A stretch of 64,000 bases of DNA from the NCBI GenBank assembly GCA_965368975.1, contig CBDUPA010000001.1, positions 352,001 through 416,000 on the forward strand, given 5' to 3'. Source of the stretch: an uncultured bacterium (GTDB lineage Bacteria; Acidobacteriota; Thermoanaerobaculia; Multivoradales; JAHZIX01). Below the pieces are notes generated by a model. It searched no databases, was not told the origin of the DNA, and worked only from the letters and a program-made list of their open reading frames with translations. Each line of letters starts with the position of its first letter. The first letter of the stretch is position 1. This document shows positions 242-17,476 of the stretch, piece by piece. The position numbers were made by a program, and so were the translations under genes.

Positions 242-377
242 GATGCGCCCTTGTCGCCGGCGGTGCAGAACCGTGGGCGCTTCTTTGCGTACACTACGAC
301 GAGCCCAGATACGATGGCCCGCGCGCCGGGCCTCCGGAGCCGCTCCGGTCCCGCCGACCTCTCAGGAAGGATCTTCC

Positions 378-3300
378 ATGTTCTCGACTCAGACTCTGCG
401 CCGCACGGTGCTGGCCCTCGCTGCCTGCACGGTGCTACCCATTCTCTCGTTTCCGGCCCTCTCCCAAGAGGGCGACGGCTCGTCCCAAGAGAGTGAACAG
501 CCCCATGCCGGCATGCTGCGCTTTCCCGACGTCAGTGCCACACACATCGTTTTCACCTACGCCAACGACCTGTGGCTCGTGGCGCGTGAAGGGGGAACCG
601 CGACGCCGCTGGCCAGTCCGCCGGGGCTCGAACGCTACCCACGCTTCAGCCCGGACGGCACGACGCTCGCCTTCGTCGGCAACTACGACGGTGACAGCGA
701 CGTTTACACCGTGCCGGTCGCGGGGGGTGTGCCGCGGCGGGTGACCCACCATCCGACCAACGAGAGGCTCGACGGCTGGAGCCCCGATGGGCGTCTGCTG
801 TTCACCGCCGCACGCATGGGCTCGCACTGGCGCATGCCGGCGCTCTACACGGTGTCGGCAGAGGGCGGATTGCCGGAGCCGTTACCCGTTCCCTATGGTT
901 CCGCAGGTGCCGTCAGTGACGACGGTCAGTGGTTGGCCTACACGCCCTTCAACCGGGATCAGCGCACCTGGAAGCGCTATCGCGGCGGCCTCGCTTCGGA
1001 TATCTGGCTGCTGGCGCTCGACGGCTCCGGCGCGTCTCGCCGGGTCACTGAGTGGGAGGGTACGGACACGCAGCCGATGTGGCAGGGCGGCATCCTCTAC
1101 TATCTCTCTGACGCCGGGCCCGCCCATCGCCTCAACATCTGGCGCTACGACCCGACGAGCGGCGAGCGCCGGCAGGTGACGCACCATGCCGACTACGACG
1201 TCAAGTGGCCGTCGATCGGTCCCGGTGCCGCCAGCGATCCCGCGAGCGGTGGGGGAGGCGAGATCGTCTTCCAGCTCGGGACCGAGCTACGTCTGCTCGA
1301 CCTGGCGAGCGAGCGCGAGACGACGGTCGAGGTCGTCATTCCTGGCGCCCGGCCCAAGCTGCGACCGCAGAGCCTCGAAGTTGGCGACCAGATCAGCGGC
1401 GGCGGCATCTCGCCGAGCGGCAAGCGAGTGATCGTCGAAGCGCGCGGTGATGTTTGGACCCTGCCCGCCGAGCACGGTAGCCCGCGCAACTTGACGCGCA
1501 CCAGCGGCGTCGCCGAGCGCTCGCCGGCTTGGAGTCCTGATGGTCGCCTCGTCGCCTACTTCGCGGACACCGGCGGTGAGTACCAGCTCTACGTACGGCC
1601 GTCCGACGGCTCCGGCCAGCCTCGGGCGCTGAGCGACTTCGGCTCCGTGGCGTATCCCGAGCATCCAGGCTACTTCTACGCGCCCACCTGGTCGCCCGAC
1701 TCCGAGCACATCGCCTTCTGGGACCGCGCCGGCCGTCTCTACCTGGCTGATGCCACGGCCAGCGAGGCACCGTCCTTCGAGCAAATCGATCACAGCGTGT
1801 GGATGACCTTCGAAGGGCCACGAGTGCACTGGTCGCCCGACTCCGCCTGGCTCGCCTACGCGCGCACTCTCGACGGCCGCGGCCTGACCGCTATTTTCCT
1901 GCACCACGTTGCCAGCGGTGCCACGCACCAGGTGACCAGTGCTCATTTCCGCAACGGCGAACCTACCTTCAGCGACGACAGCAACTTCCTTTTTCACACC
2001 AGTCACCGTGACTTCACCAATCCGTCCACGGCCAGTGGCAGCATGGACTTCGCCTACGCCAACACCGAACGCCTGCTGGCTGTGCCCCTGCGCACCGACG
2101 TCGAGTGGCCGCTGGCCGCCAAGAGCGACGAAGAGACCTGGGATGACACGTCGGGTGATGGGCGGGAGGAGAGCGCCAAGGACTCGAAAGAAGATGGCGC
2201 CAAGGCTGAGGACGGCGCAGACGAGGATGGCAAAGACGAAAATGGCAAGGACGAGGACGAGAAGCCGCTCGAGATCGACCTCGATGGCTTCGAACGCCGC
2301 GCACGTCTGCTCGACACGCCGCAAGGCCTCTACAGCCAGCTCGCAGCCGCCGGTGGCAAGCTCTTCTACCGCTTCCGCACTGCTGAGGAACAGGAATGGG
2401 CGCTCAAGGTCTACGATCTGGCCGAGGGCGAAGAGACGACCCTGCTCGAAGACGTCGCCAGCTACCAGCTGAGCGCCGATGGTAAACGGCTGGGGATCGT
2501 ACAAAGCGGCCCGCGGGGAATGCGCTTCAGTATCCTCGACGCCAAGCCTGGAGCAGAACCCACGCCGGTATCCACCGACGGTATGCTGGCCACCATCGAT
2601 CCTCGTGCCGAGTGGGCCCAGGTCTTCCACGAAGCTTGGCGCCTCTATCGTGACTTCTTCTACGCCGAGAACCTGCACGGTGTCGACTGGCCGGCCATCC
2701 GTGACCAATACGCCGCGCTGCTCGACGACTGCAACTCACGGGAAGACGTCGGTTTCGTCATCGCCGAGATGATCTCCGAACTCAATGTCGGTCACTCCTA
2801 CTATCAGGGTGGGGGCCACGAGGACGTGCCGCGGCGCAATGTCGGCATGCTGGGCGTCGACTTCGATCTGCGCCCCGGTGAGAACGGCTTTCGCATCGAT
2901 CGCATCTACCGTGGTGGTCCTTGGGACGCTGATGTACGCAACCCGCTCGAAGCCCCTGGCGTCGATGTGCACGAAGGGGACTTGCTGCTAGCGGTCAACG
3001 GTGTGCCCGTCGATACCGGCAAGGATCCATGGGCCGCGTTTCTTGGCCTCGCCGGTCGTACGGTCACGCTGACCCTTGCCTCGGGAGAGCACAGCGAAGA
3101 CGCCAACAGCGGCGAAGACACTGAGAATGAGCCTCGCGACGTCGTCGTCGAACTGCTGAATGGCGACTTCATGCACCGCTACTGGGCCTGGGTCGAAGCC
3201 AATCGCGCTCACGTCGAAGAGGCGAGCGGCGGCCGGATCGGCTACATCTATGTGCCCAACACCAGTACCTGGGGGCGCGACAACCTGTTCCGTCAGTTCC

Positions 3301-3863
3301 ACGCCCAGCGTCATCTCGATGCGCTGATCATCGATGACCGCTGGAATGGTGGTGGCTCCATCCCCACCCGCTTCATCGAGCTGCTCAACCGGCCCGTCCA
3401 GTACTTCCTGGCGGGGCGCGACAAGGAGACCATCATGCCGTGGCCTCCGATGTCGCACTCCGGCCCCAAGGCCATGTTGATCAACGGCAACTCGGCCTCC
3501 GGCGGTGACTCCTTCCCCTACTTCTTCCGCGCTGCTGGTCTCGGCAAGCTCATCGGCACGCGCACCTGGGGCGGCGTTGTTGGGCTGTCCGGCGGTCCGC
3601 AACTGATCGACGGTGATGGCGTCACGGTACCGCGTTGGGGTGTCTTCGAACTCGACGGCACGTGGGGCATGGAGGGGCACGGCGTCGATCCCGATATCGA
3701 AGTCGTCGACGATCCAGCTCTGATGCTCGATGGGGGAGATCCGCAGCTCGACGTCGCCGTCGAGCACTTGCTCGAGGAACTCGAGCGCAATCCGCCTCTC
3801 GACGTGCCACGTCCGCCCGAGCCGGATCGCAGCGGCATGGGTCTACCAGACTCGGATCACTGA
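378..3863 (+). CDS. Tricorn protease homolog (S41; beta-propellers, PDZ, catalytic domain), secreted
   Basis: Signal peptide after ATG 378; MLRFPDVSATHIVFTYANDLW; WKRYRGG; PD40-like repeats; LNVGHSY (His); DDRWNGGG; NSASGGD (Ser); GTRTWGG; EGHGVDPD. Confidence 0.95.
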   Translation: MFSTQTLRRTVLALAACTVLPILSFPALSQEGDGSSQESEQPHAGMLRFPDVSATHIVFTYANDLWLVAREGGTATPLASPPGLERYPRFSPDGTTLAFVGNYDGDSDVYTVPVAGGVPRRVTHHPTNERLDGWSPDGRLLFTAARMGSHWRMPALYTVSAEGGLPEPLPVPYGSAGAVSDDGQWLAYTPFNRDQRTWKRYRGGLASDIWLLALDGSGASRRVTEWEGTDTQPMWQGGILYYLSDAGPAHRLNIWRYDPTSGERRQVTHHADYDVKWPSIGPGAASDPASGGGGEIVFQLGTELRLLDLASERETTVEVVIPGARPKLRPQSLEVGDQISGGGISPSGKRVIVEARGDVWTLPAEHGSPRNLTRTSGVAERSPAWSPDGRLVAYFADTGGEYQLYVRPSDGSGQPRALSDFGSVAYPEHPGYFYAPTWSPDSEHIAFWDRAGRLYLADATASEAPSFEQIDHSVWMTFEGPRVHWSPDSAWLAYARTLDGRGLTAIFLHHVASGATHQVTSAHFRNGEPTFSDDSNFLFHTSHRDFTNPSTASGSMDFAYANTERLLAVPLRTDVEWPLAAKSDEETWDDTSGDGREESAKDSKEDGAKAEDGADEDGKDENGKDEDEKPLEIDLDGFERRARLLDTPQGLYSQLAAAGGKLFYRFRTAEEQEWALKVYDLAEGEETTLLEDVASYQLSADGKRLGIVQSGPRGMRFSILDAKPGAEPTPVSTDGMLATIDPRAEWAQVFHEAWRLYRDFFYAENLHGVDWPAIRDQYAALLDDCNSREDVGFVIAEMISELNVGHSYYQGGGHEDVPRRNVGMLGVDFDLRPGENGFRIDRIYRGGPWDADVRNPLEAPGVDVHEGDLLLAVNGVPVDTGKDPWAAFLGLAGRTVTLTLASGEHSEDANSGEDTENEPRDVVVELLNGDFMHRYWAWVEANRAHVEEASGGRIGYIYVPNTSTWGRDNLFRQFHAQRHLDALIIDDRWNGGGSIPTRFIELLNRPVQYFLAGRDKETIMPWPPMSHSGPKAMLINGNSASGGDSFPYFFRAAGLGKLIGTRTWGGVVGLSGGPQLIDGDGVTVPRWGVFELDGTWGMEGHGVDPDIEVVDDPALMLDGGDPQLDVAVEHLLEELERNPPLDVPRPPEPDRSGMGLPDSDH

Positions 3864-3874
3864 GTCCGCTCTAG

Positions 3875-3958
3875 CAAGAGCCGATGGCAAGAGCCAATAG
3901 CAAGAGCCAGTAGCAAGAGCCAATAGCAGGAGCCAATAGCAGGAGCCAATAGCAGGAG
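3875..3958. repeat. 13-bp tandem repeat, 6 copies plus a partial copy
   Basis: Consensus CA(A/G)GAGCCAATAG at 3875, 3888, 3901, 3914, 3927, 3940; no spacers. Confidence 0.9.
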
Positions 3959-3987
3959 GGAGTGGCCCGGTGGCCACTCCCTCTTGT
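3956..3987 (+). terminator. Hairpin, probable terminator of the tricorn gene
   Basis: Perfect 12-bp stem GAGGGAGTGGCC-CGGT-GGCCACTCCCTC with a weak T tail. Confidence 0.55.
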
Positions 3988-4442
3988 CCAAGTGCGTTCT
4001 GTACTCTTCCGAGTCCCCGAGGGGACGAATCAGGTAGGGCGGAAAGTGGTGGGTAGGTCGTGGGAAGGACCGACAGCTTCCGCACCATCGTGGTGCAGGC
4101 TCGGTGTACTACGGTGGGATGTCGTGGCGGGAGCGTTCGTCAGGGTCGACGACGCTAGCGATTGACGTGGCGGAAGAGCAGGAGACGGTACCGAAGCACC
4201 GTCACGTGGCCGGAGCCACGCACCCTGCAGGGAGCTGTCCGAACCCATAGTCACGCCGATGCCGGCACGCTTGCGATGCAAGGAAACTGCCGGGAGGTGC
4301 GCGCCGGAGGCGCTCAGGGTGTTTGGTTTCAGCTCCATGATGCAAGCAGTATACAGGTTCGTTCATGTTTTGTCCAGATTTAAGGGGGAATATCTGGACG
4401 GCCACCAGCGGGTGGTGCCCCGAGGCACCGTGGATGGGAGGA

Positions 4443-4525
4443 GCGAGGAAAGCGAGATATGCGAGAAAAGCGCGTAAAGTCTCACGGAGTTTCCTTGCTT
4501 TCCTCGCTTCCCTCGCTTTCCTCGC
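4443..4525. repeat. Mirrored 9-bp repeat array (4 forward + 4 reverse), candidate iteron origin
   Basis: Forward GCGAGGAAA/GCGAGATAT/GCGAGAAAA/GCGCGTAAA (4443-4478), 11-nt spacer, then TTTCCTTGC/TTTCCTCGC/TTCCCTCGC/TTTCCTCGC (4490-4525). Confidence 0.75.
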
Positions 4526-5942
4526 CGAGTCTCGACATCGCCCGCCAGCGCTCCAGCGGCCGACCGCCGGTCGGCTCCTTCGTGCGCGTCACCAAGTTGT
4601 GTTCGAGCAGCAGAGCCAGGGCGCGCCCGAGCTGCGTCTTGCTGCGGTGGCGGTGGAAGTGGTCGCCGATGTCGCCCTTGGTCAGGCCGTTCGGGTGGTC
4701 GCGCAACAAGCGCAGGATCTCGTCCGCCAGCGGCTCGCCGACGCCGTCGCCGAAAATCCAGCGCGTCGAGCTCTCGCAGTAGCGCCACAGTGCCAGCGCC
4801 GCCGTCAGGTGTACCGCGTCGACCACCGCCGAGCCGTCGAGCAGCGCATAGACACAGGCCAGGCGCATGGTCTGCGCCTCGGCGCGTCCGAGCATGGCGC
4901 CGAGCAGCCCCGGCTTGCCCGCGGACAGCTCGGGATAGACCTCGGCCCACAGTCGCCGCGCCTCGGTGCTGCGCCGCATCTCGCCCGTCTGGCGCCCGAA
5001 GTCCAGGCGCTGGTTCAGCTCGTGCTGTTCGGCGCGGAAGTCCAGCTCGTCCGTCCTGCCGCCCTCAGGCAGGCACTTCGAGCGGCGCACGCAGCACCAC
5101 AGAAAACGGTTGCCGAAGCCGTTGCCGGTCTCCACCGTTTCCAGATAGCGCAGCAGCTCGCCCTTGGTGATGTGGCCGATGATCGAAATGTGCGCGCCGG
5201 TGGCGCGGGCGGGAGAGTTCTTGGTCAGTGAACTGAGCCGGCCGTGGTCCCAGGCATTGCGGATGGTGGCGGACAGCGTGTTACCGTCGCGCTTGAGCAC
5301 GCGCAGCGTGGCGGCGAACTCTGATTCCAGCACCAGCAGCCGCTTGTCCTCGACGCCACCGTCACTCACCACGCTGCGTACTTGTCCCGTCGGCTTGCCC
5401 TTCTCGCGCACCGCCTCGGTCCGCTCGACCGGGTCGCGCACGCTCCAGATCAAGCCCTCGCCCGACGACATCCCCTGCTCGAAACGCTTCTGACTCCAGT
5501 GGGCGTCCGCGACGCGCAGCAGGCGCTTGGCCTGCCCGGCCGAGACGCCCTTGCGCCCTTTCGACGACTTGCCGACCAGGACCGCGAAGAGATTGAAGTA
5601 GTGGCGGTCGGCCTCGACGCGGAAGTGCGCGCCGTGCCCGATCGCGTTGCCGTACATGACCAGGAACTGCACCAGCACCGCCGCTGGGTCCGCTTCCGTG
5701 TGCGGCTCCAGCTTGCGCACATAGCGTCCGGCCAGTCCGTACATCGCGGCGTCGGGCAGCGTCGGCCAGGGTTGTAACTCGGGCAGCAGGAACGGCTCTC
5801 GCTGCTGTCCCCGGGGTTGGGCTCGAGGGTACTGCTGTCCTCGTTCTTGCTGGTGTCCCCGTTCTTGCTGGTGTCGCCGCGCCTGCAGTGCCGCCAGTCG
5901 CTCGACGGAACTCGAAGCTGGGCTCTTCGAAGAGGCCATCAC
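4482..5942 (-). CDS. DUF3987/YfjI-family P-loop protein (putative replicative helicase partner)
   Basis: NLFAVLVGKSSKGRKG Walker A-like motif; SSGEGLI; LLVLESEF; IRNAWD; ISIIGHIT; GFGNRFLW; C-terminal winged-helix-like segment; start overlaps the prim-pol stop. Confidence 0.8.
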   Translation of the reverse strand: MMASSKSPASSSVERLAALQARRHQQERGHQQERGQQYPRAQPRGQQREPFLLPELQPWPTLPDAAMYGLAGRYVRKLEPHTEADPAAVLVQFLVMYGNAIGHGAHFRVEADRHYFNLFAVLVGKSSKGRKGVSAGQAKRLLRVADAHWSQKRFEQGMSSGEGLIWSVRDPVERTEAVREKGKPTGQVRSVVSDGGVEDKRLLVLESEFAATLRVLKRDGNTLSATIRNAWDHGRLSSLTKNSPARATGAHISIIGHITKGELLRYLETVETGNGFGNRFLWCCVRRSKCLPEGGRTDELDFRAEQHELNQRLDFGRQTGEMRRSTEARRLWAEVYPELSAGKPGLLGAMLGRAEAQTMRLACVYALLDGSAVVDAVHLTAALALWRYCESSTRWIFGDGVGEPLADEILRLLRDHPNGLTKGDIGDHFHRHRSKTQLGRALALLLEHNLVTRTKEPTGGRPLERWRAMSRLGEESEGSEESKETP

Positions 5943-6817
5943 CCACCCTCCAGCCGCCGCAGCTCGCGGCCGGCGATCGACTCGATCGTGCGCACCGTCT
6001 CTCGCTCCGGCAGCGGCGGCGTCAGTTTCACCCGTGCCCAGCAGTACGCCAGCTCCGCCGCCGTATCCGCCGGTAGACAGCGAAACAGCAGTCCTGACAC
6101 CTCCGCCAGCGTCTGATTGCGCCGTCCGCGCGGCACCGGTCGCGCCAGCGTCGCCCGCCAGTCGCGCCGCCGGTGTCCACTTTGCGGACCTCCCTGCACC
6201 TCGACCGCGCTCGTCGAATCACCGCTCGTCGAATCGCCACTCGTCGAATCACCGCGCAGCAGCTGCACGAGCCACGTCGGTGCCGGCGCGATCGCCCCGT
6301 GCGTCAACGGCACTTGCCAGCGGTAGCGCGCCCCCGACGGATGTACGCTCGGCGGCGCCAGCACGTAGCCGCCGTCAGCCCGCACGTCGAGCCCGGGCAG
6401 CAGGCCCACGCGATTGCGCGCCCCGTCCGCCAGTCGATACCAGAAGTGTGCCCCGCGCGCCGTGTGCGCCTGCGCCGTCGCCGGCAACTCGTGGTCCAGC
6501 GCCGCCAGCTGCTGCCAGACCTCCGGCGAGTCGAGATCCAAGACCAACAATCCCGGCGGAATCGCCAACCCGATGTTCGCCGTCGGCCAGCGTCGCCACC
6601 ACGCCTCCACCTCGTCCACGCGTGTGCTCGCGTCCTTCACCCCGTGCGCCGTCAAGGGCGCCTTCGCCCGCGGTCGCACCGGCAGCACCGCCCACCCCTG
6701 GCGAGCATAGGCCGCCGCCTGCGCAGCCAGCTCGTCGCGTCGAGGCGGTGTTTCCGCTGTCACCCCGCTAGCTGGCCGAGGGGGATTCCGTGATAGGTGT
6801 GCTGGCATTTGTTTCAT
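5939..6817 (-). CDS. Bifunctional DNA primase/polymerase (Prim-Pol AEP) with PriCT-1 domain
   Basis: GWAVLPV, HGVKDAST, WPTANIGL, LLVLDLD, TARGAHFWY, DVRADGGYVLAPPSVHPSGARYRW; C-terminal GRRNQTL...PPLPERETVRTIESI. Confidence 0.92.
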   Translation of the reverse strand: MKQMPAHLSRNPPRPASGVTAETPPRRDELAAQAAAYARQGWAVLPVRPRAKAPLTAHGVKDASTRVDEVEAWWRRWPTANIGLAIPPGLLVLDLDSPEVWQQLAALDHELPATAQAHTARGAHFWYRLADGARNRVGLLPGLDVRADGGYVLAPPSVHPSGARYRWQVPLTHGAIAPAPTWLVQLLRGDSTSGDSTSGDSTSAVEVQGGPQSGHRRRDWRATLARPVPRGRRNQTLAEVSGLLFRCLPADTAAELAYCWARVKLTPPLPERETVRTIESIAGRELRRLEGG

Positions 6818-7186
6818 TGCATGGGTCTCCAATTTTGCGTGCTCGCTGGCTGATTTCTATCTACAGCTTACATCGTAAAAGGATCTTGTGGCAATTCCTT
6901 AGTTCTCTTTCACGGAAAATTGATCGCTGATGAGCGTAGTCGGAGTATCCTGTGATGGGTTGCGGATGGGATTGCCGTGGCACTCAAGGCTGCCTTGGTG
7001 CAATTGTTTGTAGGGCGGTGTTGCCGCTCGATCCTCGAATCCCACCTCCGCGCTGTGGCACTCTCCGGACGTTCGGCCAGAGTTTCACTCTGCGCTAGAG
7101 GTGTGCGCTGCGTGCCGCGGCCGGGGTAGGGGAGCACCGCACTTGAGCGCCGCCTCGTTGCTGTACACTTTGCACAGAAGGTCGCA

Positions 7187-7414
7187 GTGCCAGCCAAAGC
7201 AACAGCAAGCCACGATTACCAGCCCCAGTTCGTCACCAACGAAGATGGCGAACGGACGGGTGTTCTCTTGTCGCTCGAAGCGTACACGGAGCTGCTCGAA
7301 GATCTGGAAGACTTGGCCGTCATCGCGGAGCGGCGGTCCGAGACGCCCGTGGCTCATGAGGAAGTGGTGGCTCGGCTGAAGGTAGATGGCCTCCTATACC
7401 GGCGGCTGCGCTGA
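7187..7414 (+). CDS. Type II antitoxin-like protein (RelE-partner type)
   Basis: PQFVTNEDGERTGVLLSLEAYTELLEDLEDLAVIAERRSE...HEEVVARLKVDGLL pattern typical of small antitoxins found upstream of RelE/ParE toxins. Confidence 0.65.
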   Translation: MPAKATASHDYQPQFVTNEDGERTGVLLSLEAYTELLEDLEDLAVIAERRSETPVAHEEVVARLKVDGLLYRRLR

Positions 7415-7420
7415 GATCCG
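7386..7420 (+). pseudogene. Possible 5' stub of a RelE/ParE toxin gene
   Basis: ATGGCCTCCTATACC (MASYT) overlaps the antitoxin end as a RelE start would, but no RelE-like sequence follows. Confidence 0.4.
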
Positions 7421-7498
7421 GCAGGCGGTGGATGCCGGCCAGTTGAAGTGCAGGGCGGCACTGTGGCATTCTCCCGATGTCTTTTCTGTGCGAATACC

Positions 7499-10204
7499 AT
7501 GTCGGATTCTTCCTCCAACGGCGAATCTCCGCCGCGCGTCTTCATCAGCTACAGCTGGGATTCCGACGCGCACAAGGAGCGGGTATTCGAGCTGGCGGAG
7601 CGCTTGCGTGATCAAGGTATCGACGCGCAGCTCGACCAGTACGAGGTAGCACCGCCGGAGAGCTGGCCGAACTGGATGTGGAACCAGGTCGAGGATGCGG
7701 ACTTCGTGCTGGTGGTGTGTACCGAGACGTACCATCGTCGCTTCCGGGGTAAGGAAGGGCCGGGGCGCGGTCAGGGCGCGACCTGGGAAGGCACGATCTT
7801 GACGCAGAGTCTTTATGACGCTGGGAGTCTCAACACCCGCTTCGTGCCGATCGTGCTGTCGGGCGAAGACACGGAGCACATCCCGCTCGTCCTGCGTGGG
7901 GCGACGCGCTACCAACTGGATCGGGACTACGAGAAGTTGTACCGGCATCTCACGGATCAGCCCGAGTTCGTCAAGCGGCCGTTGGGCCCAGTCAAACAGT
8001 TACCAGTCAAGCAGTTACCAGTCAGACAGCTACCGGTCAGGGAGCTGCAACCGGGGAACGCCGCGCCGCCACCGACGACGACCGAGCTACAGGCGGCCTA
8101 TGCCGCGAAGCGGGACGCCGTCGCCCGAGGGGACGACACGAGCGACATCGATACCCGCATCCTGCGGCTCAAGCGTGAGAGCCGAGAGGGTAGTCGTCTC
8201 GACCCTGGTGACTTCCTCGCGGCCGGACGCTACGAGTTACTGGAAGTGGTCGGCAGTGGAGGCTTCGCCAAGGTCTGGCGTGCCTACGACCATCAAGATC
8301 AGCTAGCTGTCGCCGTCAAGGTGCTGCACGGTCAGTACGTCCAGGATCGCACACGCCGCGACCGCTTCTTCCGAGGTGCCAAGCGCATGGCGGCGCTGCG
8401 CCATCCGGGGATCGTGCGCGTGCTGACCGACAGAATGGAGGAGGACGGGCACCACTTCTTCGTCATGGAGTACGTCGCGGGGGGCGACTTGCGGCGCGCC
8501 GTGCTCGCGGGGCGCATCACCGACGAGACCAGCGCCGTCGAACTGATCGTGCAGGTGAGTGATGCGCTGGCCTACGCCCACGAGCAAGGCGTGATCCACC
8601 GCGACGTCAAGCCGGCGAATATCCTCTTGGAGCCGGGTGGTGCTGCGAAGCTGACCGACTTCGACCTGGTGCGAGCCGAGGGCACCACCGGTGGCACACG
8701 CACCGGGTCCATGGGGACCTTCGTCTATGCCGCGCCCGAGCAGTTGGTCGACGCCAAGAAGGCTGGCCCGCAAGCGGATGTCTACGGCTTGGGCATGAGC
8801 CTGGTCTTTGCGCTGCATGGACAGGACCTGCCACCGACCATGATGCGCGAAGGTGAAGTCATCCTGTCGGGCATCACCTGCTCGGAAAGCGTCAAAGAAG
8901 TCGCGTCGCGGGCGATCGGTTGGCAGCCACACGAACGGTGGAAGAACGTGCGGGAGTTCGCGCGAGCCCTGCAGGCGGCGCGTAGCGGGGAGTCCGTGGT
9001 GGCCGCGAGCCAGCCAGAGCGTTCCGGCTCGACCGAGCATCGGGCCTCCATCTCACCGGCCATCGCATCGGCCGTTATCGGTCACCGGCTGGGGGACCGG
9101 CCTGGTGCGACGCTGGTGTGCATCGGCGGCCTGCACGGCAACGAACCCGCTGGGGTCATCGCCCTGGAGAGAGTTTTTCGAGCCCTCGGTGAGGCGCCAG
9201 CGGATCAGCCCACCGGAGATCTGCACGGCGAGTTCATCGGCCTGCGCGGTCATCCCGAAGCTCTCGCCGCTGGCCAGCGCTTCCTGGAAGTCGATCTGCA
9301 GCACCACTGGCAGCCCAGCCGCGTTCACGCTAGCCGCTTTGGCAAGTTGATCGACAGCCCGGTGCCCGAAGACCGTCAGCTCGACGCGTTGCGCCAGCAG
9401 TTGGAGCTGATCTTCGGCCGCGCCCGGGGGCCCGTCTTCGTGATCGACTTGCACACCACAGGTGGCCCCAGTATCCCTTTCAGCACCATTGCGGACTCGC
9501 TGCGCGATCTGGCTTTCGCGCTGTATTTCCCTGCCCCGATCCTGGCCGAGCCGGAAAGGCAGCTACGCGGCACCTTCACCGACTACGTCGGCAGCCTACG
9601 TCACGCGGCCGTCAGCATCCGGGGCGGGCAGCACGACGACCCCGCCTCTGTCGACCTCCTCGAAGCCGTGATCTGGGTCGCGCTCGAAGAGACCGGTATC
9701 CTGCCGAGCCCGGTACCCCGAGCCGAACAAGGTCGACGTCTCCTCGGCGACCTCGTTGAGGGCTTGCCGCGCATCGTCCAGGCCCGCTACCGCCACGCCG
9801 TGAGTCCGGAGGATGCCTTCGTGATGGAGCCCGGGTACACCAACTACTCGCTGGTCCAAGAGGGCCAGGTCCTGGCGCACGACAAGAACGGTCCGGTGTG
9901 CAGCCCCGCGAGCGGTGTCCTCCTGAAGCCTCTTTACCAGACACAGGGCACCGAGGGCTTTCTCGTGGGGCAAGCCTTCCGCCCCTTCTGGCTGAAGTTC
10001 TCCGCCCTGCTGCGCCGGCTTGGCCTGGACCAGATGGCTCCCTGGCTCCCCGGCGTGCGTGCGCATCCGGAGCTACCCGACTCGCTGGTGGTCGATCAAC
10101 GTCTCGCCCGCTGGTACACGGTCGAGTTCTTCTACCTCCTCGGCTACGGCTTGCACGCCGCCGAAGAGAACCAGCTGGTCTTCGCAGCTAGAAACGTCGG
10201 ATAG
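7499..10204 (+). CDS. Fusion protein: SEFIR/TIR-like domain + Hanks-type Ser/Thr kinase + degenerate succinylglutamate desuccinylase/aspartoacylase (M14-like) domain
   Basis: RVFISYSWDS...LDQY...ADFVLVVCT...GATWEG...FVPI (SEFIR); GSGGFAKV, VAVK, HRDVKPANILL, DFD, GTFVYAAPE, DVYGLG (kinase); GGLHGNEPAG, IDLHTT, GQHDD, FVMEPGYTN (AstE/AspA). Confidence 0.88.
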   Translation: MSDSSSNGESPPRVFISYSWDSDAHKERVFELAERLRDQGIDAQLDQYEVAPPESWPNWMWNQVEDADFVLVVCTETYHRRFRGKEGPGRGQGATWEGTILTQSLYDAGSLNTRFVPIVLSGEDTEHIPLVLRGATRYQLDRDYEKLYRHLTDQPEFVKRPLGPVKQLPVKQLPVRQLPVRELQPGNAAPPPTTTELQAAYAAKRDAVARGDDTSDIDTRILRLKRESREGSRLDPGDFLAAGRYELLEVVGSGGFAKVWRAYDHQDQLAVAVKVLHGQYVQDRTRRDRFFRGAKRMAALRHPGIVRVLTDRMEEDGHHFFVMEYVAGGDLRRAVLAGRITDETSAVELIVQVSDALAYAHEQGVIHRDVKPANILLEPGGAAKLTDFDLVRAEGTTGGTRTGSMGTFVYAAPEQLVDAKKAGPQADVYGLGMSLVFALHGQDLPPTMMREGEVILSGITCSESVKEVASRAIGWQPHERWKNVREFARALQAARSGESVVAASQPERSGSTEHRASISPAIASAVIGHRLGDRPGATLVCIGGLHGNEPAGVIALERVFRALGEAPADQPTGDLHGEFIGLRGHPEALAAGQRFLEVDLQHHWQPSRVHASRFGKLIDSPVPEDRQLDALRQQLELIFGRARGPVFVIDLHTTGGPSIPFSTIADSLRDLAFALYFPAPILAEPERQLRGTFTDYVGSLRHAAVSIRGGQHDDPASVDLLEAVIWVALEETGILPSPVPRAEQGRRLLGDLVEGLPRIVQARYRHAVSPEDAFVMEPGYTNYSLVQEGQVLAHDKNGPVCSPASGVLLKPLYQTQGTEGFLVGQAFRPFWLKFSALLRRLGLDQMAPWLPGVRAHPELPDSLVVDQRLARWYTVEFFYLLGYGLHAAEENQLVFAARNVG
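7988..8047 (+). repeat. 15-bp coding tandem repeat (PVKQL x4) in the SEFIR-kinase linker
   Basis: CCAGTCAAACAGTTA-like unit x4. Confidence 0.85.
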
Positions 10205-10276
10205 CCGACAGGTTGGTCGGTAGTGGCTCCAGATCCATCTGACCCCTGCTACCGACCCCTGCTACAATCCCGGCCC

Positions 10277-11713
10277 ATGGAAACGCCGCAAAATCCGCTG
10301 CACGAGCGCTACGCTTCCCGCGATATGGCGCGCCTGTTCACCGCCTCTCACCGCTTTGGCCAGTGGCGCCGGCTGTGGGTCACCTTGGCGCGCTGCCAGC
10401 AGGAGTTGGGACTGGCGATCACGGATCGGCAGCTCGACGCGTTGGAGAAGGCAGCGCCGCCGGATCTGGAGCGAGTGGCGGAGCTGGAGCGTCAGACGCG
10501 GCACGACGTGGTGGCGCATTTGCGGCACTTCAAGGAGCAGGCGGACGAGGTCGATGCGGAAAGCGGCGCCGGGGGCATCCTGCACTTGGGGGCGACCAGC
10601 GCCTTCATCACCGACAACACCGACATGCTGCTGTTCCGCGACGCCTTGCGCCTGCTGGAGACGCGGCTGGTGGCGACGATCGGCAACCTGGCGACCTTCG
10701 CGCGTTCCCACAAGGACGTCACGTGCCTGGCTTACACGCACTTCCAGCCTGCACAGCTGACCACGGTCGGCAAGCGGGCCTGCCTGTGGATGCAGGACTT
10801 CGTGATGGATCTGGAGGACCTGCGGCACCTGCTCGACGGCCTGCGCTGCCGGGGCGTCAAGGGGACGACGGGGACGCAGGCAAGCTATGTGGCCCTGTTC
10901 GGCGATGGACAGGATGAGAAGGTCCGGCAGCTCGACCGCCGCTTCGCCGAGCGCTTGGGCTTCGCCGGCAGCTTCGCGGTTACCGGCCAGACCTACAGCC
11001 GCAAGCAGGATTCGCGCATCCTGCACGTGCTGGCGGGCCTCGGCGAGAGCGTGCACAAATTTGGCACCGATCTTCGCTTGTTGCAGGGCGTCGGGGAACT
11101 TTCCGAGCCGTTCGACGAGCACCAGGTGGGCTCGTCGGCGATGGCCTACAAGCGCAACCCGGTGCGTGCCGAGCGGCTGTGCGGCCTGTCGCGCCGGCTG
11201 CTGACGGACAGCCTCAACGGTCCGCTCAACACCGCCACCCAGTGGCTGGAGCGCAGTCTCGATGATTCGTCGAACCGGCGGCTGGTGCTGCCGGATGCGT
11301 TGCTCGGTGCTGATGCGGTGCTGGGGCTGGCCAGCCATATCGCGGCTGGGCTGCGACTGCGGCCGGCGACGATCGCGGCACGGGTGGCGCGCGAGTTGCC
11401 GTTCATGGCGACGGAGAAGCTGCTCATGGAAGCGGTCAAGCGTGGCGGTGATCGGCAAGAGCTGCACGAAGCGCTGCGCGTGCACAGCCTGGCGGCCCAG
11501 GAGGCGGTGGAGCGGGGCGACGCCAATCCATTGATCGATGCCATCCTTGCCGATTCGTCGTTCCGTCTCGAACGCGCCGAGGTCGAGGCATGGTTGCGAC
11601 CGGAAGAGTTCCGTGGTCGCTCGCCGCGACAGGTCGAGGAGTTCCTGGACGAAGTGGTGGAGCCGCTGCTGCGCGGGGCGGAGGCTGCCGACGTCGAGGC
11701 GCCGCGTGTTTGA
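10277..11713 (+). CDS. purB: Adenylosuccinate lyase
   Basis: NPLHERYAS, RHDVVAH, HLGATS, YTHFQPAQLTTVGKR, GSSAMAYKRNP signature, WLERSLDDS. Confidence 0.96.
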   Translation: METPQNPLHERYASRDMARLFTASHRFGQWRRLWVTLARCQQELGLAITDRQLDALEKAAPPDLERVAELERQTRHDVVAHLRHFKEQADEVDAESGAGGILHLGATSAFITDNTDMLLFRDALRLLETRLVATIGNLATFARSHKDVTCLAYTHFQPAQLTTVGKRACLWMQDFVMDLEDLRHLLDGLRCRGVKGTTGTQASYVALFGDGQDEKVRQLDRRFAERLGFAGSFAVTGQTYSRKQDSRILHVLAGLGESVHKFGTDLRLLQGVGELSEPFDEHQVGSSAMAYKRNPVRAERLCGLSRRLLTDSLNGPLNTATQWLERSLDDSSNRRLVLPDALLGADAVLGLASHIAAGLRLRPATIAARVARELPFMATEKLLMEAVKRGGDRQELHEALRVHSLAAQEAVERGDANPLIDAILADSSFRLERAEVEAWLRPEEFRGRSPRQVEEFLDEVVEPLLRGAEAADVEAPRV

Positions 11714-12383
11714 TCGGGACCAGCGTCTCGGCCTCCTTCGCCTGGCCCTGCTGTTGACCACGACGCTCGTGCTGCTGGCCCCCTTCGGCTGCGGTGCCAA
11801 GCGCGGCCCGTCGACCATCGCCGAGCTGGCCGAGTTCGAGCCAGGGACCAAGATCGAGAGCGGCGTTGCCTCCTGGTACGGTCACCCCTTCCACGGCCGG
11901 CGCACCGCCAACGGCGAGGTCTACGACATGCACCTGCTGACCGCGGCGCACCAGCATCTGCCGTTCGGTACGGTGCTCCAGGTGGTCAACCGCGACAACG
12001 GGCGTAGTGTCGAGGTGCGGGTCAACGATCGCGGGCCGTTCGCCAAGGGGCGCATCTTGGATCTATCGAAGGCCGGTGCCGAAGCCTTGGGCATGATCGG
12101 TCCCGGCACGGCACGTGTCGACCTCTACCTGGTGTCGCCACCACCGCCCGACGACCGCGTCTACCTGGTGCAGGCCGGAGCTTTCCGTAGCCGGGGCAAG
12201 GCCGAGTCCTTGCAGGGCCGCATCCAGGACGAGTTCCCGCAGCTCGATGTGCGCGTGAACAGTGAAGATGGCTGGCACCGCGTCCACATCGGTCGCTACG
12301 ACGTGCGCTCTCAGGCTGCCGAGCTGGTGCGCCAGCTGAAGCGGGCGGGGGTCGAAGCCTGGGTGGTCGCGGTGGCGCCCTAG
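11706..12383 (+). CDS. rlpA: Septal ring lytic transglycosylase RlpA (lipoprotein, DPBB + SPOR)
   Basis: Lipobox-like Cys; GVASWYG..FHGRRTANGEVYDM..TAAH..LPFGT; VRVNDRGPF; SPOR VQAGAF; GTG start overlaps purB end. Confidence 0.93.
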   Translation: MFDRDQRLGLLRLALLLTTTLVLLAPFGCGAKRGPSTIAELAEFEPGTKIESGVASWYGHPFHGRRTANGEVYDMHLLTAAHQHLPFGTVLQVVNRDNGRSVEVRVNDRGPFAKGRILDLSKAGAEALGMIGPGTARVDLYLVSPPPPDDRVYLVQAGAFRSRGKAESLQGRIQDEFPQLDVRVNSEDGWHRVHIGRYDVRSQAAELVRQLKRAGVEAWVVAVAP

Positions 12384-12589
12384 CTCGACGGGGCCAGAGG
12401 ATGGGGGGAGCGTGGCCGTCTTCTTCGCCCGCGCTTTTCGTGAAGAGACGCAAGGCGTGCTGCAGGTTTTCTTCGCTTGATTGGTAACGCTGCGACGCGG
12501 TGTGTGACTAACCTGAGTCATGGTCTGCTCTTCGCATGTCGCCGAGGGTGGGCTCAGGATGTCCAACTGCGTGGCACGGAGGCCAATCA

Positions 12590-14896
12590 ATGATCATGAA
12601 GAGTTTCTTGTATCGATCTCTGCCCGTTCTCTTGTGCTGTATGTTCAGCGCCGTGGTCTCCATTGCGGCGCCGGCAATGGCGCAGCCGGATCCGCGCTGC
12701 GCATGGGTCGCTGGCTTCCATGGCACTGGAATTCCGAGTGGCGTGGTCAACGCTTCCGTGGTTTGGGACGATGGTAATAGCCCGGCTCTGGTCGTTGCCG
12801 GTTCGTTGGGGGCCATCGGAGATGTATCGGCCAGCAACATCGCGCGCTGGAGCGGCTCCATGTGGACGCCCCTTGGCAGTGGGTTGCAGGGGCAGGTTCG
12901 GGCGCTGGCGGTGTACGACGATGGCGCTGGCTCGGCGCTTTACGCTGGTGGCTACTTCACGACCGCGGGCAACGTTCCTGTGAATTACATCGCCAAGTGG
13001 GATGGTTCGTCGTGGTCGGCGCTGGGTACCGGAATGGATGCCAAGGTCGAGGAGCTGGTGGTGTACGACGACGGGAGCGGTGCTGCACTCTACGCTGCAG
13101 GTAGCTTCCAGACGGCCGGCGGTGTCAACGTTGAAGGACTCGCCAAGTGGCAGGGCTCAGCCTGGTCTGCCGTCAGCGGAGGTGGCTCAGTGCATCTCGA
13201 GGCACTGGCGGTGTACGACGACGGCGCTGGGCCTCGGCTCTATGCCTCGGGGCACTTCACCGAGATTGATGGTGTTCCGGCCAATCGAATAGCGGCCTGG
13301 GATGGGAGTTCCTGGGCAGCCCTCGGGACTGGCCTGGATAGGCCGTCGCAGACGCTGACCGTACACGACGATGGAGACGGACCAGCCTTGTATGCCGGCG
13401 GCTACTTTGCCTCGGCAGGCGGCCTCAGTGTCGAGAAGATTGCGCGTTGGGATGGCACGTCTTGGAGTGCTGTTGGGGGTGGTCTGGATTTCATCGTCCA
13501 CGCTTTGACGGTTCATGATGACGGTGGCGGCCCGGCGCTCTATGCCTCGGTCGAAGTTCCGAGTGGGATCCCCAACGGGGGCCGGGTCGCGCGCTGGGAC
13601 GGCGTGACCTGGTCGGACGTCGGTACGGGCATGGACAATCTGGTGAAGACGCTCACCTCTTTCGACACGGGCGCTGCCTCAGTGCTCTACGCAGGGGGGC
13701 AGTTCACGGTCGCAGGTGGAGTCGCTGCCGGTCGCATCGCGGGTTGGGATGGCAGCGTGTGGTCTTCGCCCGACCCGAGCGCCGGCGCCGGTTTGAGTGA
13801 CGAGGTCAGAGCCTTTGCCGTCTTTGACGATGGAGGAGGTCCGAACCTCTACGCCGGTGGTAGCTTTGCCACTGCCGGTGGCACCTTGGTACACGGGGTA
13901 GCACGTTGGGACGGTGGCGTCTGGACGCCGCTGAGTTCGGGCATGAACGGCCGACTTCTGGCTCTGACGGTGTACGACGACGGCACTGGCCCGGCCTTGA
14001 TCGCAGGCGGCGAGTTCACCGAAGCGGGCGGGGTGAGCGCCAACCGAATCGCGAAATGGGACGGCACGGCCTGGAGCCCACTGAGTTCCGGTGCAGATGG
14101 CCCCGTGCGGGCACTGATTGTCCACGACGACGGCACCGGCCCAGCCCTCTACGCGGGTGGTGCCTTCGACCGAATCGGTGGTCACATTTCCCGTGGTATC
14201 GGGCGCTGGGATGGCACGGACTGGGCACACCTGGTGATCAGCGTGCCCGGTTCAGTCTCGGCCTTGGTGGTGTACGACGATGGCACCGGTCCGGCGCTCT
14301 ACGTGGGGGGCGAGTTCGAGTTCAACAACGGCAGCACTATGGTGAACAACATCGCCAGGTGGAACGGCACGAGTTGGCACGCGCTGGGCGCGGGGTTGGA
14401 CAACCGGGTCGACGCGATGGTTGTGTATGACGACGGCGCCAGCGAACAGCTCTATGTCGGGGGACATTTCTTTACCGCCGGAGGCATCTCGGTGCCGGGC
14501 CTGGCGCGTTGGGATGGCGGCGCCTGGAGCACCGCCGGCCCCAACCTCGACAACGGCGGCATCAAGACCTTCGCCATCTACGACGACGGCAACGGTCCCG
14601 TACTCTTCGCTGGTGGTTTCTTCGCCTTCATCGGTGGCGTCAACGCACCACGTATCGCCAGGTGGAACGGGGTGAGTTGGGCGCCTGTGGGCACTGGAAT
14701 GAGCAGTCACGTCTGGGCTCTTGCGGCCTATGACGACGGCCGTAACAGCTCTTTGTTCGCCGGGGGCAACTTCAGCTTCGCCGAAGCTATTCCATCTGCC
14801 ATGATCGCCAACTATCGTTGTCCTACCGCGATTTTCCGTGACGGCTTCGAGAGCGGTGATACAAGCGCATGGTCGGAGCCAGATTCCGAGCCCTGA
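12590..14896 (+). CDS. Secreted beta-propeller repeat protein (YDDGxGPALYAGG repeats) with C-terminal IFRDGFESGD tag
   Basis: Signal peptide; many ~55-aa repeats (VYDDGxGPALYAGGxF...IAxWDGxxW); ends AIFRDGFESGDTSAWSEP. Confidence 0.85.
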   Translation: MIMKSFLYRSLPVLLCCMFSAVVSIAAPAMAQPDPRCAWVAGFHGTGIPSGVVNASVVWDDGNSPALVVAGSLGAIGDVSASNIARWSGSMWTPLGSGLQGQVRALAVYDDGAGSALYAGGYFTTAGNVPVNYIAKWDGSSWSALGTGMDAKVEELVVYDDGSGAALYAAGSFQTAGGVNVEGLAKWQGSAWSAVSGGGSVHLEALAVYDDGAGPRLYASGHFTEIDGVPANRIAAWDGSSWAALGTGLDRPSQTLTVHDDGDGPALYAGGYFASAGGLSVEKIARWDGTSWSAVGGGLDFIVHALTVHDDGGGPALYASVEVPSGIPNGGRVARWDGVTWSDVGTGMDNLVKTLTSFDTGAASVLYAGGQFTVAGGVAAGRIAGWDGSVWSSPDPSAGAGLSDEVRAFAVFDDGGGPNLYAGGSFATAGGTLVHGVARWDGGVWTPLSSGMNGRLLALTVYDDGTGPALIAGGEFTEAGGVSANRIAKWDGTAWSPLSSGADGPVRALIVHDDGTGPALYAGGAFDRIGGHISRGIGRWDGTDWAHLVISVPGSVSALVVYDDGTGPALYVGGEFEFNNGSTMVNNIARWNGTSWHALGAGLDNRVDAMVVYDDGASEQLYVGGHFFTAGGISVPGLARWDGGAWSTAGPNLDNGGIKTFAIYDDGNGPVLFAGGFFAFIGGVNAPRIARWNGVSWAPVGTGMSSHVWALAAYDDGRNSSLFAGGNFSFAEAIPSAMIANYRCPTAIFRDGFESGDTSAWSEPDSEP

Positions 14897-15003
14897 ACTA
14901 CCAGACTCACTCTTCTGGTTCCTGCTGCGGGCTTCTTCTGGGCTTGGTCCAACAGAAAGAAGCCCACGCTGGCTCTCGGGTAAGCCTCGGCTATCATCGT
15001 CAC

Positions 15004-15831
15004 ATGTTTCAGATGGATCTGACGACCACGTCTGACTCCAGTTGCTTGCTGCCCCTCTTTGCTGATCACCAGCAGCTACGAGCGATCCGAGACGCTGTTC
15101 TCGAAGGCCGGTTCGGTCGAGCCTGGGTGGATCAAGCGCAGCGGCCAGCCGTGGCGCGACTGGATCTGGGCTGCTATGCGATCTTCGGTGGAGACTCGAC
15201 TGCGGACAGTGCCCAGGTACTCATCGAGAGCGTCGCCGCGCCGAGAGAACTGATCTATCCCGATACCGCGTGGCGACGGCGTCTGCTGCAGGCGTTCGAG
15301 TCGAGGCTGCAGGATCGGCCCATGGAGGCCTTTTCCGGCGCGCGTCTGGCGCCCGCACGGCTGCAGGTGCTCGCCGAGGCGTTGCCAGCCGGATACCGGT
15401 GCGCTGCGCTGAATGCAGACGACGCGACGCAGCTCGATGCCGGTCTGGAGCCACACGGACTGCAGGTTTACAGGGACCCGGAAGTACTGGTTCGAGACGG
15501 CATGGCTTGGGGCCTCTTCACCACCGCTGCTGAGCCTCGCCTGGTCAGTATCGCCAGTTCCTACGCGATGTCGAATCGTAGCGTCGAGGTGGCGATCTCC
15601 ACGCGACCGGAACATCGAGGCCGCGGTCTGGCCGTTGCTGTGGCTGCCCGCTTCTGCCTGGAGGCTCTGCGCCGAGGTTTGGAGCCGTGTTGGAACGCGG
15701 CCAATCCGGTGTCCAAGCGCTTGGCACGTCGTTTGGGGTTCGAACCGGCGGGGGAATGTGAGGTCTTGTTCTTGGAAGGCGGTCGAAGGCGCACCGGCTC
15801 CGCGGGATCTCCCGCAGAGCCGGCGGCGTGA
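15004..15831 (+). CDS. GNAT-family acetyltransferase
   Basis: VEVAISTRPEHRGRGLA acetyl-CoA motif; PCWNAANPVSKRLARRLGF. Confidence 0.85.
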   Translation: MFQMDLTTTSDSSCLLPLFADHQQLRAIRDAVLEGRFGRAWVDQAQRPAVARLDLGCYAIFGGDSTADSAQVLIESVAAPRELIYPDTAWRRRLLQAFESRLQDRPMEAFSGARLAPARLQVLAEALPAGYRCAALNADDATQLDAGLEPHGLQVYRDPEVLVRDGMAWGLFTTAAEPRLVSIASSYAMSNRSVEVAISTRPEHRGRGLAVAVAARFCLEALRRGLEPCWNAANPVSKRLARRLGFEPAGECEVLFLEGGRRRTGSAGSPAEPAA

Positions 15832-15835
15832 GCCT

Positions 15836-17407: not shown

Positions 17408-17410
17408 CGC

Positions 17411-17476
17411 GAGCTGGCCGTCGTCGAGTTGGCCGTCGTCGAACTGGTCGTCGTCGAGCTGATAGTCGGCGAGCTC
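17411..17476. repeat. 15-bp tandem repeat, about 4 copies
   Basis: GAGCTGGCCGTCGTC-like units. Confidence 0.8.

Follow-up and report, generated by a model that had tools for sequence, protein, structure and literature searches.

A SEFIR-kinase protein of an uncultured Acidobacteriota bacterium carries a probable pseudoenzyme of the AstE/aspartoacylase fold at its C-terminus

What might a protein do that joins a SEFIR domain, a Ser/Thr kinase and a domain of the AstE/aspartoacylase (AspA) hydrolase fold in one chain, and is such a combination genuine? This question is raised by a gene, here called P0001, in a 64,000-nucleotide stretch of DNA (the window; G000:C1:352001-416000) from an uncultured bacterium of the Acidobacteriota, whose genome assembly (G000; GCA_965368975.1) comprises 7.13 Mb in 59 contigs. 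The gene occupies 7499..10204 on the + strand, stop codon included, and the list of open reading frames (ORFs) places it in a single unbroken frame on that strand running from GTG 7448 or ATG 7499 to 10204. We take ATG 7499 as the likely start, giving a product of 901 residues, because a homologue, P0045, starts at the aligned Met. A first-pass annotation of the window had read three domains in this one ORF, and Pfam indeed places SEFIR, Pkinase and AstE_AspA_cat in P0001. No NCBIfam equivalog scored above its cut-off for the protein, and no transmembrane (TM) segment was apparent by eye, a TM predictor not having been applied. From its sequence, we conclude that the gene is genuine and encodes a three-module protein that is predicted to be cytoplasmic.

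The C-terminal module sets P0001 apart. It follows a polar junction linker (residues ~496-523; 8984..9067, + strand), which was placed from alignment A1 and from the environmental contigs described below, and it spans residues ~524-901 (9068..10201, + strand). Pfam AstE_AspA_cat (PF24827) matches residues 535-655 with 30.9 bits against a cut-off of 25, and in A1, which holds P0001 and 13 free-standing AstE-like proteins, the tail aligns end to end with family members of ~390 residues. An AlphaFold model of the tail built from A1 reached a pLDDT of 81.9, and a Foldseek search with this model retrieved EutE/DoeB (6twm, E 1e-14, TMt 0.65) as well as 3cdx, AstE (1yw6), aspartoacylase (2i3c) and CphZ. 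The full-length alignment, the model and the structural match together bear out the earlier assignment of a whole AstE/aspartoacylase-like domain. As a single sequence, the tail matched the Protein Data Bank (PDB) only marginally (E 0.32), and the family profile was needed for the structure alignment. A predicted tail homodimer scored 0.01, which carries no weight either way.

Within this conserved fold, the changes cluster in the active site. The tail of P0001 keeps all 57 invariant columns of A1, including those of HGNE (H546, E549) and DLH (H652), and profile alignments place H546, E549 and H652 on the zinc ligands of aspartoacylase and AstE, indicating that the zinc triad is kept. In aspartoacylase, according to the accessible text of PMC5412892, the zinc ligands are H21, E24 and H116, and the catalytic site is formed by R63, N70, R71, Y164, R168, E178 and Y288. 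The family motif R..DLNR aligns with Arg63, Asn70 and Arg71 of aspartoacylase; the Arg63 equivalent is kept as R594, while the substrate pair is lost, with Q601 and H602 in place of the Asn70 and Arg71 equivalents (DLNRHW in the family, DLQHHW in P0001). The catalytic Glu is lost as well, the family GFEGGQH reading SIRGGQH with R708 in its place. This Glu column aligns with the Glu of GTELGG in 3cdx, and its equivalence to aspartoacylase E178 was drawn through 3cdx, not from a direct alignment. Two further family motifs are altered, DTLRNR to DSLRDL (S667, D670, L671) and GLEEEL to AEPERQL (E684, R687). Overall, P0001 departs alone from the consensus at 15 of the 41 near-invariant columns of A1 (start Met excluded), where ~3 would be expected per sequence. 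The free-standing proteins P0121 and P0122 retain the catalytic Glu, the Asn/Arg pair, the Arg63 equivalent and the zinc triad in the same alignment. P0122, which has the consensus residue throughout, would be the tail's active counterpart in this genome. The reading frame of the tail has stayed open despite ~40% divergence from its nearest relatives. The tail is probably a pseudoenzyme that has kept its fold and metal ligands, and with the catalytic Glu and the Asn/Arg of substrate binding gone, we consider a non-catalytic binding module its most likely nature.

The other two modules are widely shared. We compared P0001 with 5.8 billion proteins by a word-indexed search (1801 matches among 7999 scored candidates; 119 non-self matches listed) and with 1.84 billion cluster representatives by an exhaustive HMMER pass (149 non-self matches listed). 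The best word-indexed matches span only ~52-60% of P0001, namely SEFIR and kinase, at ~50% identity, and matches to this part cover residues ~10-510 at 45-53% identity, continuously over the SEFIR domain, the helical linker and the kinase. PF08357 and PF00069 occur together in 39 of the 119 matches listed from the word-indexed search, and 19 of these 39 also have FGE-sulfatase. Likewise, ~60 of the 149 HMMER matches listed align with residues ~10-500 in one stretch, and a sub-cassette of residues 193-498 recurs in many HMMER matches. The position of the cassette in its hosts varies, being N-terminal, internal or C-terminal: it takes up 360-872 of 1111 residues in P0241, 412-901 of 906 in P0020 and 943-1429 of 1431 in P0029. 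A Pfam scan resolved these three as SEFIR-kinase-Ig/cadherin with an extra N-terminal kinase-like region (P0241), CHAT-SEFIR-kinase (P0020) and HsdM/N6_Mtase-AAA_23-SEFIR-kinase, with HsdM-methylase and SMC as the partner set (P0029). Further partners, taken from precomputed Pfam assignments, are TPR, CHAT, SpoIIE, caspase, AAA_16/AAA_22, response regulator, FHA and HsdM-type methylase with SMC; CHAT, caspase, HsdM methylase with SMC and STAND-like AAA among the partners are domains of conflict systems. TM-like hydrophobic segments lie between kinase and FGE in P0004, P0014, P0038 and P0245 (alignment A2, by eye). Residues ~10-500 are, on these comparisons, a widespread mobile cassette with interchangeable partners, most often FGE-sulfatase (FGS; lectin fold), which frequently follows a TM helix.

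The architecture of P0001 had been called undescribed. For SEFIR plus kinase this does not stand, as ~60 of the 149 listed representatives show, while for the AstE-like tail, unique to P0001, it does. In the full-text literature we found no description of a prokaryotic SEFIR-kinase cassette, and supplementary tables may still list such architectures. A literature search for 'bSEFIR' gave no result, the word 'SEFIR' is absent from Kaur et al. 2020 (PMC7159879) and 2021 (PMC8195603), and in the accessible text of a bacterial kinase atlas (10.1101/2025.01.12.632604) neither 'TIR' nor 'SEFIR' occurs. The same portion of the atlas gives FGE-sulfatase as a partner in one kinase family (10.1101/2025.01.12.632604).

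The SEFIR domain itself covers residues 13-151 (7535..7951, + strand; Pfam E 9.8e-19), with 68.5 bits for SEFIR against 52.6 bits for TIR_2 (E 8e-14) at the N-terminus. The bSEFIR profile of PADLOC, PDLC03957, matches residues 7-168 with an E value of 1e-52, which sharpens the first description of the domain as SEFIR/TIR-like to a SEFIR of the bSEFIR type. Among PDB entries, this part matches the SEFIR of Bacillus cereus (5y8e, E 2.5e-15) and that of Act1 (9ot1, E 3e-7). The Glu that had been seen as retained in GATWEG is E96; it is present in 11 of the 12 SEFIR-bearing rows of A2, and its counterpart in the B. cereus structure 5y8e is also a Glu. Behind the domain lies a (P)VKQL linker, a 15-nt tandem repeat (7988..8046, + strand; period 15, ~3.5-3.9 copies) encoding VKQLP units, in agreement with the repeat linker read before. 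P0045, a SEFIR-TM-FGE protein with no kinase (A2; TM by eye), is 90% identical to P0001 over residues 1-172 only and begins to diverge exactly at this linker. The P0001 gene is therefore a mosaic, because the similarity to P0045 ends exactly at the repeat.

The kinase follows a helical pre-kinase segment, the two together spanning residues ~193-495 (8075..8983, + strand). Pfam Pkinase (PF00069) matches residues 245-446 with 141 bits (E 5.4e-41), and A2 places the β3 Lys, HRD Asp, catalytic-loop Asn and DFG Asp at K274, D369, N374 and D387, within the motifs H367-R368-D369, D387-F388-D389 and P413-E414. At the αC Glu position, P0001 has G293, and this Gly is near-invariant through the SEFIR-kinase and kinase-FGE family (RFFRGA in A2), whose other motifs are VAVK, HRDVKPxNILL, TDFDLV (DFD, not DFG) and APE. 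The Gly and the DFD are therefore family traits and not local decay, because the whole family has them in common, and on this alignment the active site of SEFIR-kinase proteins is atypical yet conserved. The salt bridge between the αC Glu and the β3 Lys is treated as a kinase hallmark in the accessible text of the kinase atlas (10.1101/2025.01.12.632604). Of the full Hanks kinase proposed at first, the Pkinase match and the Lys, HRD, Asn and Asp residues hold, whereas the αC Glu is missing and DFD replaces DFG.

P0001 is one of many kinase genes in its genome, where we counted 90 kinase-domain matches. Three paralogues have the layout SEFIR-kinase-FGE, two on contig C12 (839 and 793 residues) and one on C2 (749 residues), and C12 also encodes a kinase-FGE protein of 565 residues. 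Both SEFIR-kinase-FGE genes and the kinase-FGE gene of C12 lie within ~14 kb of the locus C12:216000-235900, flanked by genes for nonribosomal peptide synthetases (NRPS); the first begins 4 nt past the end of an NRPS ORF, and a DUF2157/DUF4401/GDYXXLXY membrane protein sits among them. We also observed a 444-residue protein with SEFIR (129-262) and TIR_2 (307-427) domains and no kinase at C1:578 kb (C1:576704-580237, 1153-2487), and, at C13:153283-154019 (- strand), a SEFIR-kinase-like fragment that is split into two neighboring pieces and contains an in-frame TAG, probably a pseudogene of the cassette family. The SEFIR type of P0001 was found in 0 of 5 genomes of the same family and 8 of 25 of the same order, while G000 itself has seven matches, and one genome of the order (G010) carries three copies inside 11 kb. 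This patchy, expansion-prone distribution is typical of an accessory family.

Where, then, did the tail come from? Searched alone (402 residues), it gave 998 matches among 8000 scored candidates. All 120 relatives listed are free-standing proteins of 351-476 residues with PF24827 only, and the closest among the matches listed are P0121 (60% identity) and P0122 (57%), the latter encoded on the window's own contig. Among proteins of 705-2010 residues with this AstE-like domain, only P0001 was found, which is weak evidence, and in the HMMER pass over 1.84 billion representatives no other cluster joins an AstE-like tail to a kinase. We see no second fusion of cassette and AstE-like domain there, because no HMMER match exceeded 565 bits, well below the score expected for such a protein. 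The three-part combination has been observed in a single lineage only. P0121 and P0122 are 81% identical to each other; the tail is 57-60% identical to these two and 46-49% to more distant members, and identity to P0124 is 55% for P0122 and 49% for the tail. From these pairwise identities, the tail is placed next to P0121 and P0122, with a branch somewhat longer than theirs.

The free-standing gene has a characteristic neighbor. In G000, where the AstE-like gene is P0122, and in four of four same-family relatives (G001, G002, G003 and G005), the gene immediately upstream encodes a ClpA-like ATPase; this adjacency is not present in G006. At these loci (G001:C154, G002:C9, G003:C26, G005:C510 and, in G000, C1:60000-79000 at 9858-13456), a ClpA/ClpB-like double-AAA ATPase gene is followed by an AstE-like gene for ~390 residues. 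The arrangement points to a functional link, as yet uncharacterised, between a Clp ATPase and the AstE-like hydrolase subfamily. Judged by synteny and identity, P0122 is the syntenic copy in the ancestral position, and the tail of P0001 is a diverged extra copy of the ClpA-linked zinc hydrolase.

For the route by which this copy reached P0001, we looked to gene order. We rejected the idea that a resident gene was captured at the edge of an island, since an AstE-like gene lies beside purB, the gene directly downstream of P0001, in 0 of 5 relatives and the syntenic copy is P0122. The purB loci of these five relatives have no AstE-like, tricorn-like or Prim-Pol matches (0 of 5). In G003 and G006, the upstream neighbor of purB is an arginine deiminase gene; in G000, 292 kb separate the arginine deiminase gene from purB, and the former lies immediately to the left of P0041 and P0122 (C1:60000-79000, 5000-11123), P0041 being a DUF4365-kinase-FGE protein at C1:67-70 kb. 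The ancestral junction of arginine deiminase and purB is therefore split in G000. Each of the new junctions bears a kinase-family gene and AstE-like sequence, and the divergence of the two pairs is similar (kinases 58-60% identical, AstE parts 57%). A block duplication or rearrangement is hinted at as the origin because both junction pairs have diverged to a similar degree. A single inversion was discarded, the gene orientations in G000, G003 and G006 not being reconcilable with one. We also rejected a Rosetta-stone link between free-standing AstE-like genes and kinases: at 0 of 13 relatives' loci, viewed to about ±9 kb with some cut by contig ends, was there a kinase, SEFIR or FGE, and only in G000 does a kinase gene (P0041) stand beside a free-standing AstE-like gene (P0122).

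The junction between kinase and tail could be followed in environmental DNA. Sludge contigs from three runs of one study, aligned at a likeness of at least 85%, cover window positions 8502-9800 (X2; 103 letters differ, ~92% identity), 8300-9399 (X3; 75 letters, ~93%) and 8590-9800 (X4; 98 letters, ~92%), and all three cross 8984-9067 without a break. A check of the junction near 9000-9070 had been proposed, and it is now bridged by contigs, not by source reads, of three sludge runs at ~92% identity. The fusion is not a misassembly, because independent contigs of a ~92% relative bridge the junction, and the junction is older than the split from this relative, because both have the fusion. An earlier caveat, that the fusion might be a singleton made by misassembly or a recent stop loss, stands insofar as only one cluster and a ~92% relative have it, and falls in that it is neither misassembled nor very recent. 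Of 110 differences from the window, the first 40 all fall no further than 8942 and so in the kinase part; third codon positions account for 24 of these 40, a pattern consistent with purifying selection on the kinase. In the tail, the relative has a 1-nt deletion at 9169 (+ strand; codon 557, just after HGNE) in the only covering contig of each of X2, X3 and X4. No compensating gap is listed, and the shifted frame in the window would stop at 9350. At most 14% of the words sampled from 8600-9500 were present in any one sequencing run, and no RNA dataset was listed among the runs matching these words.

The surroundings of P0001 are those of a variable spot. On the right, purB (adenylosuccinate lyase; 10223..11713, + strand; NCBIfam TIGR00928, 353 bits, cut-off 326) starts 19 nt past the P0001 stop codon. 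On the left, a Prim-Pol protein with PriCT_1 (5939-6832, - strand) and a primase-C-terminal/winged helix-turn-helix protein (4482-5942, - strand), identified by Pfam and by a PHROGs match to DNA primase/polymerase, form a pair (4482..6832, - strand) that is a remnant of mobile-element replication functions. Between this pair and P0001 lies a RelB-like ORF of 75 residues (7187..7414, + strand; Pfam E 3.4e-4, 20.8 bits, under the cut-off of 27). Further left, 183-3863 (+ strand) encodes a tricorn-like protease of 1226 residues with TolB-type β-propeller repeats and a C-terminal peptidase-like region by eye; PHROGs gave no match for this ORF. Directly after it, a 13-nt tandem repeat, TAGCAAGAGCCAA, of ~6.7 copies (3872-3958) marks the left edge of the variable region. 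The G+C content is ~0.62-0.64 across 6500-8500 and ~0.66-0.69 in the flanks. No tRNA was found in window positions 1-20000, and the flanks of the locus have no direct repeats other than pairs of chance size. The scan for promoters gave one candidate site, within purB, and that for terminators gave three, with no excess over shuffled sequence. To the right of purB, 12536-14896 (+ strand) encodes a predicted secreted protein of 786 residues with ~12 repeats of the unit YDDG-G-ALYAGG-F--AGG------IA-WDG--W. The first-pass annotation had taken the position of P0001 to fit a defence island, a view that these neighbors do not sustain: they amount to a Prim-Pol/primase remnant and a sub-threshold RelB-like ORF with no PADLOC match, and purB follows 19 nt downstream. 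The locus is a variable spot with a mobile-element remnant, and a defence island is not demonstrated.

We tentatively read P0001 as a lineage-specific SEFIR-kinase protein of conflict or signalling whose sensor slot is filled by a pseudoenzyme, a reading that we favor while placing it somewhat short of probable. In this reading, the SEFIR domain would be the effector, the kinase the transducer and the tail a variable binding module in the partner slot. The tail might sense a small acyl-amino-acid-like ligand or serve as bait that mimics the active enzyme, and its engagement would alter oligomerisation or autophosphorylation through the kinase. The altered kinase state could then license hydrolysis of NAD+ by the SEFIR domain, as in the bSEFIR defence protein, with growth arrest or abortive infection as the outcome. 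By analogy, we infer a binding role for the tail, coupling of the kinase to the SEFIR domain, NADase activity and a defence role. The analogy draws on several reports, cited here from the accessible parts of their text: a single-gene SEFIR protein defends Bacillus subtilis from phi29, and its D40A mutation abolishes defence (10.1101/2022.05.11.491447); a SEFIR system uses the SEFIR domain at its N-terminus to deplete NAD+ (10.1101/2024.02.11.579819), yielding ADP-ribose (ADPR) and nicotinamide (10.1101/2024.02.11.579819; 10.64898/2026.09.04.749371); FGS domains are non-enzymatic invader-binding modules located C-terminal to effectors, and inactive enzyme copies have been described as decoys (Kaur et al. 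2020, PMC7159879; 2021, PMC8195603). The earlier idea of a sensing C-terminal domain that activates the SEFIR effector survives in part, as a variable C-terminal module fits the family pattern, while the tail is probably not an enzyme.

A more specific version would make the tail an integrated decoy, a dead copy of the ClpA-linked hydrolase held out as bait, so that a phage factor targeting the real enzyme, or the ligand of that enzyme as it builds up in infected cells, would trigger a kinase-dependent SEFIR NADase. We regard this version as improbable. In plant nucleotide-binding leucine-rich repeat (NLR) receptors with integrated decoys, the immune receptor incorporates an inactivated host-protein copy; the integrated decoy, if true, would be a bacterial counterpart of these, wired like IL-17R/IRAK.

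Several observations weigh against the reading that we favor. The fusion is restricted to one protein cluster plus the ~92% relative, and if the deletion at 9169 is real, the tail would be out of frame in the sludge population and thus dispensable or decaying there. The competence of the kinase for catalysis is uncertain because the whole family is without the αC Glu. For the effector, the bSEFIR profile match is limited to positions 37-197 of 412, and the catalytic residue of bacterial SEFIR is not identified in the accessible text of the cited literature. Finally, PADLOC found 0 families in the three upstream neighbors of P0001 tested, and two of the three SEFIR-kinase-FGE paralogues, those on C12, lie beside or among NRPS genes and not in defence islands.

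The main rival to a recruited pseudoenzyme is a neutral or accidental fusion, in which a rearrangement exchanged the usual sensor for a duplicate hydrolase gene, the tail is decaying baggage, and either the SEFIR-kinase part works or nothing does. The singleton cluster would be expected from such an event, as would the 15 of 41 near-invariant columns, catalytic Glu included, at which P0001 is the sole exception, the 1-nt deletion at codon 557 of the ~92% relative and the synteny breakpoint beside a mobile-element remnant. Baggage is harder to reconcile with ~380 codons that have stayed open, with all 57 invariant columns of A1 kept and with a confident fold despite ~40% divergence. Moreover, the metal ligands are spared while the changes are concentrated in the substrate and catalytic pocket, and the junction is older than the split from the 92% relative. 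We consider such an accident possible, on the doubtful side. A tail that is still an enzyme, with altered chemistry (e.g. a zinc hydrolase acting via other residues) under control by phosphorylation, would explain why H546/E549/H652, R594 and the fold are intact. This is very unlikely, as the general-base Glu has become Arg and the Asn/Arg pair Gln/His, and mutants of the equivalent Glu (aminoacylase-3 E177A and CphZ E251A, whose inactivity we assume from their use) are among the Foldseek matches.

A different objection concerns not the tail but the role of the whole protein, which could belong to ordinary signalling as a branch of a large Ser/Thr-kinase repertoire, in which SEFIR would serve not as an NADase but as a homotypic adaptor like that of IL-17R/Act1. 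The 90 kinase-domain matches of the genome are in line with this, several members of the cassette family are receptor-like with a kinase-TM helix-FGE layout (TM by eye), the paralogues adjoin NRPS genes, and an older proposal, cited in the accessible text of 10.1101/2022.05.11.491447, makes bacterial SEFIR an adaptor. We nonetheless judge it unlikely, given the patchy distribution of the SEFIR type, the fusions of the cassette to CHAT, caspase, HsdM-methylase with SMC and STAND-like ATPases, the strong match to the bSEFIR defence profile and the presence of the conserved WE Glu. Least credible of all, to the point of being negligible, is an assembly or frameshift artefact of the genome record. 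It could appeal to the lack of any run with over 14% of the words sampled from 8600-9500, whereas contigs of three runs (8502-9800, 8300-9399 and 8590-9800) at ~92% are unbroken at 8984-9067, and homology to both families continues in frame on either side of the junction.

If the tail is indeed a bait or ligand sensor, P0001 would be a clean case of the recruitment of a pseudoenzyme into bacterial immunity and would give a handle on the function of the free-standing ClpA-linked hydrolase family; if it is baggage, the locus records modular immune genes sampling and discarding partners. Either way, P0001 resembles a natural domain-swap experiment in the cassette family, with the sensor apparently swapped for an inactivated copy of a host enzyme. 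The wider family also merits attention: environmental genomes, those of Acidobacteriota type among them, commonly encode SEFIR-kinase-(TM)-FGS proteins, in which an immune domain of the NADase type is linked with a kinase and a receptor-like module, and this is the wiring logic of animal SEFIR/TIR receptors.

Among known systems, the bSEFIR system (Bacillus sp. NIO-1130, Millman et al. 2022) has in common with P0001 an N-terminal SEFIR effector and a single polypeptide with modules behind it. In contrast to that system, the rest of the protein is replaced in P0001 by a kinase and an AstE-like domain, and P0001, judged by its sequence match, falls outside the bSEFIR system when the full profile is taken as the definition. 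The animal IL-17R/Act1 proteins share the SEFIR fold with P0001 (9ot1, E 3e-7) and the coupling of a receptor module to a kinase; their SEFIR serves as an adaptor, in contrast to the NADase activity reported for bacterial SEFIR, and nothing points to a shared ancestry of the two architectures. The Ser/Thr-kinase defence proteins PD-T4-6, Mad6 of MADS and MkoA in PADLOC resemble the P0001 kinase (up to 1.9e-58 against PD-T4-6 profiles), with matches that cover its generic kinase domain only. Stk2 is another Ser/Thr-kinase defence protein, and we know of no description of a PD-T4-6, Mad6, MkoA or Stk2 system with a SEFIR domain. With the AstE/AspA hydrolases (succinylglutamate desuccinylase, aspartoacylase, EutE/DoeB and CphZ), the tail shares the fold and the H-x-x-E...H zinc triad, and it belongs to a subfamily of ~390 residues with ~1000 free-standing members found. 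Unlike them, it has Arg for the catalytic Glu and Gln/His for Asn/Arg and is fused to signalling domains, so that, judged by these residues, it is not a canonical AstE/AspA enzyme. Closest in organization are the conflict proteins that combine an effector with FGS. P0001 is in the same cassette family, its closest homologues and three in-genome paralogues being SEFIR-kinase-FGE, and it follows the same syntax of a variable binding domain C-terminal to effector and signalling domains; it differs in having no PF03781 match by Pfam and no TM by eye, an enzyme-derived domain filling the slot. In summary, the AstE-like C-terminal partner of P0001 was not found elsewhere, and the protein is best placed in a known kind, that of modular SEFIR/TIR-effector conflict proteins with a C-terminal sensor.

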